DNA from: an uncultured Thiohalocapsa sp.
GTDB lineage: Bacteria; Pseudomonadota; Gammaproteobacteria; Chromatiales; Chromatiaceae
Direction of reading: 5' to 3'
Assembly (NCBI GenBank): GCA_964524185.1
Contig: CAZGCI010000010.1
Span: 520-64,519 of the forward strand
Length of the DNA: 64,000 nt
Shown here piece by piece: positions 9,096 to 17,860 of this stretch; positions within the stretch are counted from its first letter, which is position 1; the number at the start of each line of letters is the position of its first letter. Below the pieces are notes generated by a model. The model worked only from the letters and a program-made list of their open reading frames with translations, was not told where the DNA came from and searched no databases. The translations under genes were made by a program, and so were the position numbers.

Positions 9096-11060
9096 GTGAT
9101 CGTGAAGGCTTCAACGCAGCACAACGCGCCCGCATCCATGGGCGTTGCAACGGCAGTCGGCGCGACAAACGCGGCCGACGCCACCGCGCCAGCACCGGCA
9201 GCGCCGCCGATCTCCGCAGCGACAGCCCGCACGCTGGCAGGGCTCTTCGCGCAGCGGGTGGATCGCACACCGGGCGCAACGGCCTATCGCCAGTGCGAGG
9301 GCGACACCTGGCGCGACTACAGCTGGCGCGAGCTGGCCCGCCTGGTGGAGCGGTGGCAACGGGGCCTCGCCGCCGAGGGGCTGGCGCCGGGCGAGCGGGT
9401 GGCCGTGGCCCTGCCGAACAGCGTGGACTGGGTCTGCTTCGATCAGGCCGCCCTGTCGCTGGGGCTGGTGACGGTGCCGCTCTACACCACCGACAGCGCC
9501 GGCAACATGGCGCACATCCTGGCCGACAGCGATGCACGGCTCCTGCTACTCGAGGACGACGCACAATGGGCCGCCATACTGGCCCGCGACACGCCCCTGC
9601 CGCAGCTCAAGCGCGTGCTCTGCCGGCACCGCAACGCCGCCAATACCGACCCGCGCCTGTGCAGCCTGCACGACTGGTTGCCGGGCCGCACCGACGACGG
9701 CCCGACGCCCTATGCGGCAAGCGCCGTTGACGCCGCCCACAGCCCCGCCAACGAAGCCGACCCCGACCCGGACGCCACGGCCACCCTGGTCTACACCTCG
9801 GGCACCACGGGGCCGCCCAAGGGCGTGATGCTCTCGCACCGGAACATCCTGAGCAACGCCGAGGCCGTTCTGATGCGCATCCCGGCGTACCCGACGGATT
9901 GCTTCCTATCCTTCCTGCCCCTGGCGCATGCCTTTGAGCGCACCGTGGGCTATTACTTGCCCATGATGGCGGGCTGCACGGTGGCCTATGCCCGCTCCAT
10001 CGAGCAACTGCGCGAGGATCTGCTCAGCGTCCGCCCGACGGTGCTCCTGTCGGTGCCGCGCGTGTACGACAAGATCTATGCAGCCATCCAGGCCAAGCTC
10101 GGGCGCGCCGGCATCAAGCGCCTGCTGTTCGAGACCACCGTCCGGCTGGGCTGGCGACGCTTCGAGGCCGCCCAGGGGCGCCGCCCGCCGCCGGGGCCGC
10201 TGAATCGCCTATTGTGGCCGCTGCTCCACCGGCTGGTGGCCGCCCCCGTGCTGGAGCGCCTCGGCGGGCGGCTGCGGGTGGCGGTGAGCGGCGGCGCACC
10301 GTTGTCCGCCACCGTGGCCAGGTGCTTCGTCTCGCTCGGGCTGCCGTTGACGGAGGGCTACGGGCTGACCGAGGCCGCGCCAGTGGTCACCAACGTCGGC
10401 GTCCTGGACTTCCGCCCCGGCTTCGTCGGCCTGCCGCTGCCGGGGGTGGAGCTACGACTAGGCCCGCAACAGGAGATCGATGTGCGCGGACCCAACGTCA
10501 CCAAGGGCTACTGGGGCCAGCCGGAGGCCACCGCGACGGCCATCGACACCGACGGCTGGCTGCACACCGGCGACGTGGGCGAGCTCCAGGACGGCTACGT
10601 GCGCATCCGCGGCCGGCTCAAGGAGATCATCGTCACCTCCACCGGCGAGAAGGTGCCGCCCGGCGCCGTGGAGGCAGCGCTGACCATGGCGCCCCTGTTC
10701 GATCAGGCCATGGCGGTGGGCGAGGGCCAGCCCTACCTCACCGCCGTGCTGGTGCTGGCGGAGGCCCCCTGGCGCGAGCTTGCACAGCAGCTGGGCGTCG
10801 ACGCGGATGACCCCGCTGCCCTGCACGCCCCGAACGTCCTTGCCGCGGCGCAGGCCATTGGGGATGCGCAGCTCGAGGACTTCCCGCGCCCGGCGCAGGT
10901 GCACGGCCTGCACCTCACCCGCACGCCCTGGACCACCGAGAACGGTCTCATGACACCCACCATGAAGCTCAAGCGCGATGCGCTGCTGGCAGCCTTCGCC
11001 GACGCCATCGACGGCCTCTACCGCCGGCCGCGCCCCCCTCGCAGCGAGGCCCGCCGTTGA
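9096..11060 (+). CDS. Long-chain acyl-CoA synthetase (AMP-forming, FadD/ACSL-like)
   Basis: AMP-binding motifs LVYTSGTTGPPKGVMLSH, TEGYGLTE, GWLHTGDVG, KLKR. GTG 9102 with GGAGG upstream is an equally likely start. Confidence 0.85.
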   Translation: MIVKASTQHNAPASMGVATAVGATNAADATAPAPAAPPISAATARTLAGLFAQRVDRTPGATAYRQCEGDTWRDYSWRELARLVERWQRGLAAEGLAPGERVAVALPNSVDWVCFDQAALSLGLVTVPLYTTDSAGNMAHILADSDARLLLLEDDAQWAAILARDTPLPQLKRVLCRHRNAANTDPRLCSLHDWLPGRTDDGPTPYAASAVDAAHSPANEADPDPDATATLVYTSGTTGPPKGVMLSHRNILSNAEAVLMRIPAYPTDCFLSFLPLAHAFERTVGYYLPMMAGCTVAYARSIEQLREDLLSVRPTVLLSVPRVYDKIYAAIQAKLGRAGIKRLLFETTVRLGWRRFEAAQGRRPPPGPLNRLLWPLLHRLVAAPVLERLGGRLRVAVSGGAPLSATVARCFVSLGLPLTEGYGLTEAAPVVTNVGVLDFRPGFVGLPLPGVELRLGPQQEIDVRGPNVTKGYWGQPEATATAIDTDGWLHTGDVGELQDGYVRIRGRLKEIIVTSTGEKVPPGAVEAALTMAPLFDQAMAVGEGQPYLTAVLVLAEAPWRELAQQLGVDADDPAALHAPNVLAAAQAIGDAQLEDFPRPAQVHGLHLTRTPWTTENGLMTPTMKLKRDALLAAFADAIDGLYRRPRPPRSEARR

Positions 11061-16442: not shown

Positions 16443-17860
16443 CCTGTATCCGCACCGCGCTGTACGCACTCAGCGCTGCCGACGGTGCCTGGCTGTTCAG
16501 CCGTGCCGTGCTCGTGCTGTTGGCGCTGCGGCTCGGCCTGTTGCTGCTCCTGTGGGCCGTCGGCGGCGAGCCGCTGCAGCCGGACTCACCGCTGTACCTA
16601 CAACTGGCCGCGGGCCTGGCGGAGCAAGGCTGGTTCTCCGCCAGCCTCACGACCTTTCAACCAGAGGTCTTTCGCACGCCGGGCTACCCCGCCTATTTGG
16701 CCTTGTTCTACCCGACGGGGCTACCGACAGGGCTCAATCACCTATTCTGGCCGCTGCTGGTGCAGGAGGGCCTGTACCTGGTCAGCGTGGGCATCTTCTA
16801 CATCGGCACGCGGACGCTGCTGGACCTCGGCCTGGCGCGGGCGGTGGTGATATTCCTGCTCATCGAGCCCGGCGGCATCGCCTACCCGAAGCTCCTGTTG
16901 AGCGACACGCTCCACCTGGCCCTGATCGTACCCGCCGTCTTCGCGCTGGGCGGGCACCTCCGGACCCAGCGCTGGTCCTGGCTCATCACCGCCGGAGTGC
17001 TGCTGGGCGCCGCCGCCTGGGTGCGCCCGGCGGCCTTTTTGCTGCCGGTGGTGTTCGCGCCGGTGCTGATTGTAGCCAGCCGTTTTCGACGCGCCGGCTT
17101 TATCCGCGCGGGGGTGCTCGTGCTGGTGACCACGTTGACGCTGAGTCCGTGGCTGGCCCGTAACCAGAGCGTCTTCGGCACGCCCTACCTCTCCGGGCAG
17201 GCCAGCAACATGTTCGCCAACTACCACCTGCCCTACGTCTGGGAGGTGACACGCGGCCTGCCCTTCCAAGACGGCCAGCGTGAGGTGGCTGCGCTCACCG
17301 AGCAGGCCGTCGCGGAGGCGGAGGCCGAGTTGGGCAGGGCACTCAATGCCGTGGAGCGGCTCAACGTCCAACAGGCCCTTGCGCTGGCCGAGCTCAAGCA
17401 GCATCCGGCGCCCTATGCCCAGCGCTGGATCATCGGCATGCTCAAGACCCTGCTCGGCCCCGGCCTGCTGGACGCCTACGCCGCCTATGGCCACCAGCCC
17501 GAGCGCATCCGCTTCGCGGCCATCGACGAGGCATCGTTCACGCGCAAGGTCACACAATTCCTGGCCGGCCAAGACCTACTGGTGCTCACCGAGGTGCTGC
17601 TGCGCGGGCTCCTCCTCGGCCTCGCACTCATCGGCGCCCTCGTCATCCTGCGCTCCGGCAACCCGTTCCTGTGGATCATCCTGCTCTTCACCGCCTACAC
17701 CATCGCCATCCCCGGCCCCATGGGCCTCACCCGGCTACGCTTCGCGGCGGAGGGGTTTCTGTTTTTGCAGGCGTGGCTGGGGTTGCGGTGCCTCTGGCGG
17801 GCCCTTGCGGCCGTCCATTCCTGGGGCAGCCAGCTGCGCCAAGCAGGCGCGTTGCACTAA
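16439..17860 (+). CDS. Polytopic membrane protein, GT-C (ArnT/PMT, GT39/83)-like putative glycosyltransferase
   Basis: ATGA overlap with the upstream gene. Many TM segments. N-terminal loop QPDSPLYLQLA ... FRTPGYPAYL resembles GT-C first-loop architecture. Confidence 0.6.
   Translation: MTCIRTALYALSAADGAWLFSRAVLVLLALRLGLLLLLWAVGGEPLQPDSPLYLQLAAGLAEQGWFSASLTTFQPEVFRTPGYPAYLALFYPTGLPTGLNHLFWPLLVQEGLYLVSVGIFYIGTRTLLDLGLARAVVIFLLIEPGGIAYPKLLLSDTLHLALIVPAVFALGGHLRTQRWSWLITAGVLLGAAAWVRPAAFLLPVVFAPVLIVASRFRRAGFIRAGVLVLVTTLTLSPWLARNQSVFGTPYLSGQASNMFANYHLPYVWEVTRGLPFQDGQREVAALTEQAVAEAEAELGRALNAVERLNVQQALALAELKQHPAPYAQRWIIGMLKTLLGPGLLDAYAAYGHQPERIRFAAIDEASFTRKVTQFLAGQDLLVLTEVLLRGLLLGLALIGALVILRSGNPFLWIILLFTAYTIAIPGPMGLTRLRFAAEGFLFLQAWLGLRCLWRALAAVHSWGSQLRQAGALH

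Follow-up and report, generated by a model that had tools for sequence, protein, structure and literature searches.

Two probable units, not one lipid pathway, in a five-gene run beside an O-polysaccharide locus of a Thiohalocapsa-like genome

Does a run of five tightly packed genes on one strand encode one pathway? We asked this of positions 9096-17860 of a 64,000-nucleotide stretch from an uncultured Thiohalocapsa sp. (assembly GCA_964524185.1, contig CAZGCI010000010.1; the whole stretch is called the window hereafter), where two genes for acyl activation lie directly ahead of genes for a flavoenzyme resembling UDP-galactopyranose mutase (UGM), a flippase-like membrane protein and a glycosyltransferase (GT) of the GT-C fold. 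A preliminary description of the sequence had joined the five genes in a single lipid or glycolipid pathway. With moderate confidence we read them as two independent units whose adjacency is particular to this Thiohalocapsa-like genome, namely an Aas-like acyl unit (unit A, genes 1 and 2) and an extracytoplasmic glycosylation unit (unit B, genes 3 to 5, the trio). Their features are as follows.

9096..11060, plus strand: gene 1 (unit A), long-chain acyl-CoA ligase, ACSL/FadD11-like, 654 aa
11057..13993, plus strand: gene 2 (unit A), fusion of acyl carrier protein (ACP), fatty acyl-AMP ligase (FAAL), transmembrane (TM) segment and PlsC, i.e. ACP-FAAL-(TM)-PlsC, 978 aa
13994..14112, plus strand: intergenic boundary of units A and B, with the conserved motif TGTGCGAGAAT at 14046-14056
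14113..15420, plus strand: gene 3 (unit B), UGM-like flavin adenine dinucleotide (FAD) enzyme, PRK07208-type, 435 aa
15417..16442, plus strand: gene 4 (unit B), UPF0104 / LPG_synthase_TM protein, MprF flippase-domain family, 341 aa
16439..17860, plus strand: gene 5 (unit B), GT-C fold glycosyltransferase, PMT_2/ArnT-like, 473 aa

Structure and co-conservation of the five-gene run

The five same-strand, tightly packed open reading frames (ORFs) that had been described are present in the sequence, and their GC content at third codon positions (0.87-0.92, in a window of about 67% GC) is as expected of real genes. The domain assignments made at that stage agree with Pfam and NCBIfam, for gene 5 by way of its homologues and a structural model. 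Genes 1 and 2 overlap in TTGA at 11057-11060 (TTG start, TGA stop), and ATGA overlaps join genes 3 and 4 at 15417 and genes 4 and 5 at 16439. The gap of 134 nt reported between genes 2 and 3 is correct if gene 3 starts at ATG 14128; it is reduced to 119 nt if the conserved TTG at 14113 is used, which follows an AAGGA Shine-Dalgarno-like sequence at a distance of 7 nt and whose start context, GGATTGAAC, is kept in relatives. An independent contig from a public microbial-mat run spans the gene 2/3 junction (13892-15844) with zero mismatches, hence the juxtaposition is physically real and no assembly artefact. The window sequence is present in two microbial-mat DNA runs only, and a megablast comparison of the whole region with plasmids gave a single irrelevant match of 115 nt.

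To follow the two halves of the run across genomes, we used two locus surveys. A profile scan of species representatives yielded 69 loci with the flavoenzyme (L015-L083), of which 49 include over 5 kb upstream of it, and 80 loci with the fusion (L084-L163) were examined out of at least 598 metagenome loci that carry the full ACP-FAAL-PlsC architecture. Neither the acyl-CoA ligase nor the FAAL-PlsC fusion was found by tblastn within 10 kb of the flavoenzyme at any of the 69 loci, and no flavoenzyme, UPF0104 or GT-C gene was found near the fusion at any of the 80. The only AMP-binding genes within 10 kb of the flavoenzyme, in two Acidobacteriota loci (L032 and L035), encode acetyl-CoA synthetases four to five genes away and were rejected as support for a five-gene pathway. 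Genes 3 to 5 recur together in the Chromatiaceae metagenome-assembled genome REDK01 (L005), in Thiohalocapsa sp. ML1 (L006) and in four other contigs; genes 1 and 2 are absent upstream of the trio in L005-L010, just as the trio is absent from the fusion loci L011-L014. The closest relatives of the pair (L013) and of the trio (L021) each lack the other module. Furthermore, the phyletic ranges differ, the fusion being present in most Chromatiaceae genera whereas the GT-C has its close relatives in a small Thiohalocapsa-like clade only.

Nucleotide homology to fusion loci stops at 13948 and homology to trio loci starts at 14108. Between these positions lies TGTGCGAGAAT, an extended -10-like element (TGn and GAGAAT; conserved form TGTGCGAGAAT(N)CG), which stands 57 nt 5' of the conserved TTG start in the window and 68-81 nt 5' of it in relatives. 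It is repeated in L015, L017, L018 and L021, each time with a different upstream gene, and occurs once in the window, versus 0.13 occurrences expected by chance. The element may be an extended -10 promoter or an operator, and its conservation suggests that the trio has a promoter of its own and is transcribed separately.

As a single operon, the five genes had been proposed to work in the order in which they lie: genes 1 and 2 would build an acylated, lipid-anchored donor in place of the usual GT2, and this donor would be modified by the flavoenzyme, flipped by the UPF0104 protein and transferred by the GT-C. Tight packing on the same strand, a gap of just 119-134 nt in which no terminator-like site was found, and the real physical linkage of genes 2 and 3 all speak for this proposal. 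Against it stand the lack of co-conservation in both surveys, closest relatives that hold one half without the other, the different phyletic ranges and the trio's own conserved 5' region. In addition, members of the flavoenzyme family are fused to GT2 and to sugar enzymes of the short-chain dehydrogenase/reductase (SDR) type, never to acyl enzymes, and acyl activation need not stand in for a GT2, as a GT2 of the ArnC/PgfS type exists at 39154-40131 in the same polysaccharide locus. The preliminary description had itself tied its pathway to co-conservation of the five-gene set, which our locus surveys did not find. On synteny the single pathway is already contradicted, and we regard it as very improbable. 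Genome annotation should therefore not take close packing on one strand, with about 120 nt between genes, as evidence for a shared pathway.

The acyl-activating pair

Gene 1 matched Pfam AMP-binding (258 bits) and AMP-binding_C_3, and its top NCBIfam match was FadD11, well under the cut-off. In gene 2, Pfam placed PP-binding at residues 48-104, AMP-binding at 152-551 and Acyltransferase/PlsC at 786-909; the DS phosphopantetheine motif is present in the ACP and the NHQSYLD (HX4D) and FPEGT motifs in the PlsC domain, and a hydrophobic segment at about 735-753 separates the FAAL and PlsC domains. The top PDB matches of the adenylation domain were FAALs (3pbk at 2.7e-97, then 3kxw, FadD32, FadD23 and FadD28), versus about 1e-37 for CoA ligase structures. 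Gene 2 scored 431 bits with the NCBIfam FAAL model (cut-off 600) and 181 bits with the Aas equivalog PRK08633 (cut-off 1221), which places it outside the Aas family proper.

From its domains, gene 2 probably encodes an Aas-like enzyme for returning free fatty acids to membrane lipid. The FAAL domain would adenylate a free fatty acid, the acyl group would be loaded onto the phosphopantetheine of the fusion's own N-terminal ACP, and the membrane-anchored PlsC domain would pass it to a lysolipid or glycerol-phosphate acceptor; free fatty acid would thereby enter membrane lipid, as with Aas, without coenzyme A (CoA) or a soluble ACP. Like gene 2, Aas is one membrane-associated polypeptide in which a fatty-acid-activating, adenylate-forming domain is joined to a PlsC-family acyltransferase, and, as proposed here for gene 2, it re-esterifies free fatty acid to lipid through an acyl-ACP intermediate. 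Unlike Aas, gene 2 has a reversed domain order (ACP-FAAL-PlsC), an ACP fused in cis and an adenylation domain of the FAAL type, closest to 3pbk and FadD32. ElbD, a multidomain ether-lipid enzyme of Myxococcus xanthus, likewise contains fatty-acid-activating, carrier and AGPAT/PlsC-type domains, plus a reductase domain; Pfam detected no reductase domain in gene 2. Bacterial FAAL fusions to lysophospholipid acyltransferases were described as uncharacterised by Patil et al. 2021 (PMC8460268).

Coupling of the acyl-CoA ligase to the fusion downstream of it is limited to the Thiohalocapsa clade and a few metagenome loci. An orthologue of gene 1 lies directly 5' of the fusion in L012 (59%) and L013 (78%), there is none in L011, and an ACSL-like gene precedes the fusion in one of the 46 metagenome loci with enough sequence. 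In Thiohalocapsa marina genes 1 and 2 form a coupled pair adjoining the mraZ/dcw cluster, in the closest relative of the pair (L013, 79% identity) they are followed by a Uma2 gene and HSP20 genes, and Thiocystis violascens has the fusion alone, without the gene 1 partner. No conserved family was found among the fusion's neighbours, which gave 139 Pfam families, each common to at most four of 121 neighbours.

Flavoenzyme, flippase-like protein and GT-C

Gene 3 matched the Pfam families NAD_binding_8 and Amino_oxidase and, weakly, GLF (36.6 bits, cut-off 26.3). A Foldseek search with its AlphaFold2 (AF2) model (pLDDT 88) placed UDP-galactopyranose mutases on top (4dsg and 3ukk, TM-score 0.80), with protoporphyrinogen oxidase next (0.75). 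Residues were compared with the flavoenzyme family aligned both to the UGM of K. pneumoniae and to the Glf of the window, to which the family is 25% identical with an hhalign probability of 97.6%. H69, F156/F157, Y160 and T161 of gene 3 correspond to H60, F151/F152, Y155 and T156 of the K. pneumoniae enzyme, and R312, Y373 and R402 to its R280, Y314 and R343. H69 is the flavin-site histidine, F156, F157, Y160 and T161 belong to the uridine-binding motif FFxPYTxK, and R312 and R402 are the active-site arginines; substituted with respect to K. pneumoniae UGM are W160 (F165 in gene 3), Y349 (H408) and Tyr347 (Phe). The family keeps the UGM-type uridine-binding motif FFxPYTxK(M/L)(F/W)G and the two catalytic-site arginines without exception. 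Judged by sequence and model, gene 3 has the fold, the flavin-site histidine, the uridine motif and the two arginines that define the UGM-like flavoenzyme superfamily, and it is a UGM-like paralogue that probably acts on a UDP-linked substrate. With Glf/UGM and the relatives UNGM and Fcf2 it shares the fold, the His loop, FFxxYTxKxW/F, both arginines and the C-terminal GRxxxxRxxxxD. It is unlike Glf in being linked to GT-C, UPF0104 and GT2 genes, where Glf goes with cytoplasmic galactofuranosyltransferases.

The family is large (about 340 clusters at 50% identity, E <= 1e-30), and we counted its associations in those 65 related loci where the flavoenzyme ORF is intact. In 18 of these, a hidden Markov model (HMM) detected a GT-C either among the three genes that follow on the same strand or directly upstream, in 11 a UPF0104 gene stands among the two genes that follow, and in 13 a GT2 domain is fused to the C-terminus of the flavoenzyme, counts that are approximate and probably underestimates because the genes of GC-rich loci were called by same-strand chaining. 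The 18 GT-C loci belong to Acidobacteriota, Methylococcaceae, Polyangiaceae, Bacteroidota, Nitrospinota and Desulfobacterota; the 11 UPF0104 loci are all gammaproteobacterial, and in them the UPF0104 gene directly follows the flavoenzyme; the 13 GT2 fusions, of 728-747 aa, are from Chloroflexota (within L047-L063, e.g. L050:9977-12175). Other fusions join the flavoenzyme to an N-terminal cellulose-synthase-like GT2 of the processive type (P0284, 1019 aa) or to an RmlD-like SDR (P0353). In L164 and in Thioalkalivibrio paradoxus it adjoins polytopic proteins whose first helix is followed by a DD or DE motif and for which Pfam gave no match. In the literature searched, we found no description of an association of a UGM-like enzyme with a GT-C (with or without UPF0104) or of a PRK07208 module.

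Gene 4 matched PF03706 (LPG_synthase_TM) with 143 bits and TIGR00374 above its cut-off, and hydropathy gave about eight TM segments. It is not a GtrA_DPMS_TM, MATE or EamA protein and so falls outside the GtrA, MATE and ArnE/F types of flippase, of which we infer it to be a functional analogue. PF03706 is the MprF flippase-domain family; GpgF of the P. aeruginosa gpgSDF genes is a proposed flippase (PMC12713373), archaeal UPF0104 proteins are predicted to flip lipid-linked glycans, with AglD-type loci holding a GT2 and a PMT/STT3-like enzyme (PMC5898192), and the PplT preprint (10.1101/2022.03.11.483950) is a further reference beside this literature. With the flippase domain of MprF, GpgF and the C-terminal domain of archaeal AglD (UPF0104, COG0392), gene 4 has in common PF03706, the size, the polytopic topology and the fact of being encoded with enzymes that build a lipid-linked head group. 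It differs from MprF and GpgF in that PF03706 stands alone, without the aminoacyl-phosphatidylglycerol synthase domain (DUF2156) that would make it an MprF and without GT4/deacetylase partners, and in its proposed cargo, which would be a polyprenyl-phosphate sugar.

Gene 5 gave nothing significant in Pfam (PMT_2, E = 0.007) and no match in NCBIfam. Its homologues carry PF13231 (PMT_2), and the best 41 PDB matches of its AF2 model (pLDDT 87) in Foldseek were all of the GT-C fold, with AglB, STT3, ArnT, ALG3/9, Emb, PimE and PMT among them. D49, in the predicted first periplasmic loop, is invariant in 21 homologues and would provide the acidic catalytic-type residue that a GT-C has in its first extracytoplasmic loop. 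In L001-L004, GT-C paralogues that share 34-43% identity with gene 5 stand together with UbiA, GtrA and HAD phosphatase genes, in L002 and L003 also with a radical-SAM/SPASM gene, and clusters of this type have several GT-C copies per locus; GT-C relatives at 37-39% identity are among those with UbiA, GtrA and HAD neighbours. A layout of UbiA, GtrA and HAD genes is that of the pentofuranose/polyprenyl-phosphoribose three-component systems (Kelly et al. 2024, PMC11127046). The pentofuranosyl GT-C family of those systems, GT136, was founded on ORF12 of Citrobacter youngae and goes with a UbiA-type polyprenyl-phosphoribose synthase, a partner that the trio in the window lacks.

Polysaccharide locus and proposed glycosylation route

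Downstream of the trio the following features were identified.

17903..18075, no strand: nested hairpin of 173 nt, inverted repeats, between the convergent GT-C and GT4 genes
18167..34838, no single strand: ABC-transporter O-polysaccharide locus with four GT4 genes, methyltransferases, two AsnB genes and a sulfotransferase (Pfam)
29723..30574 and 30571..31836, in the O-polysaccharide locus: Wzm, and Wzt with a Wzt_C domain (Pfam)
39154..40131, minus strand: candidate donor synthase of unit B, ArnC/PgfS-like polyprenyl-phosphate GT2, 325 aa
40462..41451, minus strand: SDR epimerase/dehydratase-type enzyme, orthologue of an SDR that flanks the trio elsewhere
41460..43489, minus strand: second SDR (352 aa) and GT2 (324 aa), from tblastn orthologues and the L164 gene table
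62273..63679, plus strand: bona fide UDP-galactopyranose mutase (Glf), GLF E = 1.4e-78

Unit B is most likely a multi-component extracytoplasmic glycosylation module at the left edge of the ABC-transporter O-polysaccharide locus. In L005 the trio is embedded among orthologues of the window's GT4 and AsnB genes, with Wzm/Wzt, and in L006 it likewise abuts or sits within O-polysaccharide genes; the arrangement in L005 implies that the trio belongs to the polysaccharide locus and that genes 1 and 2 lie just outside its edge. Further polysaccharide-region genes in the window encode GT2, GT4, SDRs and the bona fide Glf. The GT2 at 39154-40131 scored 288 bits with NCBIfam PgfS and 151 bits with ArnC (cut-off 529), both under the equivalog cut-offs, and has C-terminal TM segments at 227-291. 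The SDR at 40462-41451 shares 80% identity with its counterpart in L005, which is divergent from the trio, and 55-65% with the one whose gene overlaps the GT-C stop in L006, L007, L008, L019 and L021. Orthologues of the second SDR (62-63%) and its GT2 (68%) are convergent to the flavoenzyme-UPF0104 pair in L038, L041 and L164. These partner GT2 and SDR genes lie 21-25 kb from the trio.

In the route that we propose, SDRs would possibly first make or epimerise a UDP-sugar, which the UGM-like flavoenzyme would remodel in the cytoplasm, most likely by an isomerisation of the pyranose-to-furanose type. A GT2, for which the gene at 39154-40131 is the candidate, would put the sugar on polyprenyl phosphate, the UPF0104 protein would flip the lipid-linked sugar, and the GT-C would add it to a periplasmic acceptor, most likely O-polysaccharide or lipopolysaccharide (LPS). 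Since a true Glf is encoded elsewhere in the window, the flavoenzyme's sugar would not be ordinary UDP-Gal, and a furanose is favoured by the UGM-type active site, the separate Glf and the kinship of the GT-C with transferases of pentofuranose systems. The Arn- or Gtr-like logic of the preliminary description (lipid-linked donor, flipping, GT-C transfer) fits genes 3 to 5, not all five. We suggest only tentatively, and with some doubt, that a UGM-like flavoenzyme and a GT-C make up an undescribed route by which a furanose, or another flavin-remodelled sugar, reaches surface glycans outside the cytoplasm. The association of the flavoenzyme, sometimes with UPF0104 and sometimes with a fused GT2, spans Gammaproteobacteria, Acidobacteriota, Bacteroidota, Nitrospinota, Myxococcota and Chloroflexota.

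The trio can be compared with the three-component systems GtrA/B/C of Shigella and Salmonella, GmlABC of Klebsiella, CsbB/GtcA/YfhO and the pentofuranose system of Citrobacter youngae (PMC11127046). Like these, it combines a GT-C that has an aspartate in outer loop 1 with a small polytopic protein of flippase type and an enzyme that forms or modifies the donor; it lies at or in an ABC-transporter O-polysaccharide locus, and an auxiliary SDR is often present, as in C. youngae O2. Unlike these, its flippase candidate is of the UPF0104/MprF type and not GtrA, MATE or ArnE/F, its cytoplasmic partner is a UGM-like flavoenzyme and not a GT2 or UbiA-type synthase; as for the GT2, it lies at a distance in this genome, and Chloroflexota have one fused to the flavoenzyme.

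Two other roles for the trio were weighed. With protoporphyrinogen oxidase nearly as close in fold as UGM (TM-score 0.75 versus 0.80) and a histidine at the position of UGM Y349, the flavoenzyme might be an oxidoreductase that, together with an SDR, epimerises or oxidises a polyprenyl-phosphate sugar before flipping and GT-C transfer, after the manner of the DprE1/DprE2-like two-step reaction or of the single SDR by which undP-Ribf becomes undP-Xylf. The trio is found with an SDR in L005-L008 and L016-L021, GT-C relatives occur in UbiA-type pentofuranose systems, and epimerisation of lipid-linked sugars has precedents (PMC11127046). The invariant UGM-type uridine motif and catalytic arginines, however, point to a UDP-sugar substrate, and many lineages have the flavoenzyme and a GT-C without an SDR. 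Moreover, the fold of DprE1 is VAO, different from that of the flavoenzyme, and we hold this role to be unlikely.

The acceptor could also be another one, the trio modifying lipid A or core (ArnT/Rgt-like), the head group of a membrane glycolipid or phospholipid, or a periplasmic protein (PMT/Pgf-like), in which case the UPF0104 protein might flip a glycerolipid and not a polyprenyl-phosphate sugar. The characterised or proposed cargos of UPF0104 proteins are indeed glycerolipids, Lys-phosphatidylglycerol and GlcN-phosphatidylglycerol (PMC12713373), ArnT is among the structural matches of gene 5, L006 and L007 have a KdsA-like gene ahead of the trio, and in L009 the trio is outside any polysaccharide locus. 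By contrast, O-polysaccharide genes for GT4, Wzm and Wzt border or surround the trio in the window, L005 and L006, and archaeal UPF0104 proteins are linked to GT2 and PMT/STT3-like enzymes in glycosylation loci (PMC5898192). No ArnA-, ArnB- or ArnD-type gene (formyltransferase, aminotransferase, deformylase) was seen among the scanned window ORFs, so the trio does not form part of an Arn pathway there. We give little weight to these other acceptors.

Several observations weigh against the reading of two separate units with glycosylation by the trio. A simple scan of the gap between genes 2 and 3 for consensus promoters and terminators gave nothing usable, and none of the public RNA runs searched contains the window sequence; transcription may read through from gene 2 into gene 3. 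Gene 3 scored 66 bits with the Glf equivalog TIGR00031, far under the cut-off of 303.75 and hence outside that family, and, with the two phosphate-contacting tyrosines replaced, it may be no mutase. Among the 65 loci, 23 have none of the three associations, many of them short contigs or distant homologues, and Acidobacteriota have a bare pair of flavoenzyme and GT-C, with GT2 and flippase genes absent nearby. The GT2 at 39154-40131 is 21 kb from the trio and has no orthologue within 10 kb of the trio elsewhere, and as the source of the lipid-linked donor it is therefore no more than a candidate. To our knowledge, flipping of a polyprenyl-phosphate sugar has been shown for no member of the UPF0104 family.

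The palindromic element noted after gene 5 is real and consists of nested inverted repeats, with arms at 17903-17942/18036-18075 and 17969-17988/17990-18009. The intergenic region 17861-18166 (306 nt) has a fold energy of -175 kcal/mol (z = -5.9), an Rfam search of 8000-19000 matched no family, and the hairpin is unique in the window, with no second copy. Microbial-mat contigs vary inside it (G>C at 18008, C>G at 18033). It is a possible bidirectional terminator or mobile palindrome.

Within the polysaccharide region, the GC content of 26000-34000, which holds a GT4 (709 aa), a methyltransferase, Wzm/Wzt and the sulfotransferase, is 0.54-0.60 versus about 0.67 elsewhere and suggests a horizontally acquired, serotype-specific core. 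Just beside the ArnC/PgfS-like GT2 lie a second gene of the FAD amine-oxidase type (36657-38027, minus strand; HpnE-like, PRK07233 at 522 bits, above the cut-off) and, convergent with it, a 549-aa polytopic protein (34998-36647) with at least nine hydrophobic segments and no Pfam or NCBIfam match; together, 34998-38027 may be a second pair of flavoenzyme and membrane transferase in the locus. As no HMM or Pfam matched it, the 549-aa protein was rejected as a GT-C of the gene 5 family, and the ORF at 38046-39071, without a Pfam match, was rejected as a second UPF0104 protein. The glycan region also encodes a 1455-aa protein with CBM9 and fn3 domains (46293-50660) and a 900-aa protein with a trypsin-like peptidase domain (51830-54532). 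Among the relatives, a KdsA-like DAHP_synth_1 gene is found in L006 and L007, shortly upstream of the trio, and also in L018 and L020, and Thiohalocapsa sp. ML1 (L006) has a NeuB/CMP-sugar set and a pyruvyl transferase nearby; such neighbours hint at links to core or nonulosonic-acid glycans. Upstream of the five genes, 2166-6199 is a sulfur or selenium handling cluster, with an 859-aa fusion of Pyr_redox_2 and AIRS/AIRS_C (SelD-like), a DsrE-family gene and a fusion of ArsR-HTH and rhodanese. Between it and gene 1, 6716-8930 holds two or three ORFs without a family match (337 aa; 189 aa, with a marginal DsrE match; and an alternative one of 239 aa on the minus strand), and either strand may be the coding one around 8145-8930.

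The five-gene lipid pathway is not real as a unit, while the trio and the fusion are each fairly widespread. The common ACP-FAAL-PlsC fusion could be a CoA-independent route for the re-use of free fatty acids. If the trio works as proposed, it would represent a fourth donor-supply strategy, beside the GtrB-type GT2, the Arn pathway and the UbiA/PRPP-type synthase (PRPP, phosphoribosyl pyrophosphate), for the periplasmic glycosylation systems that diversify O-antigens, and would give UPF0104 a bacterial role outside phospholipid flipping. If the tentative furanose route also holds, its polyprenyl-phosphate furanose donor would be made through a mutase and not from PRPP, and bacterial flipping of such a lipid-linked sugar would have its first demonstrated case within the UPF0104 family.

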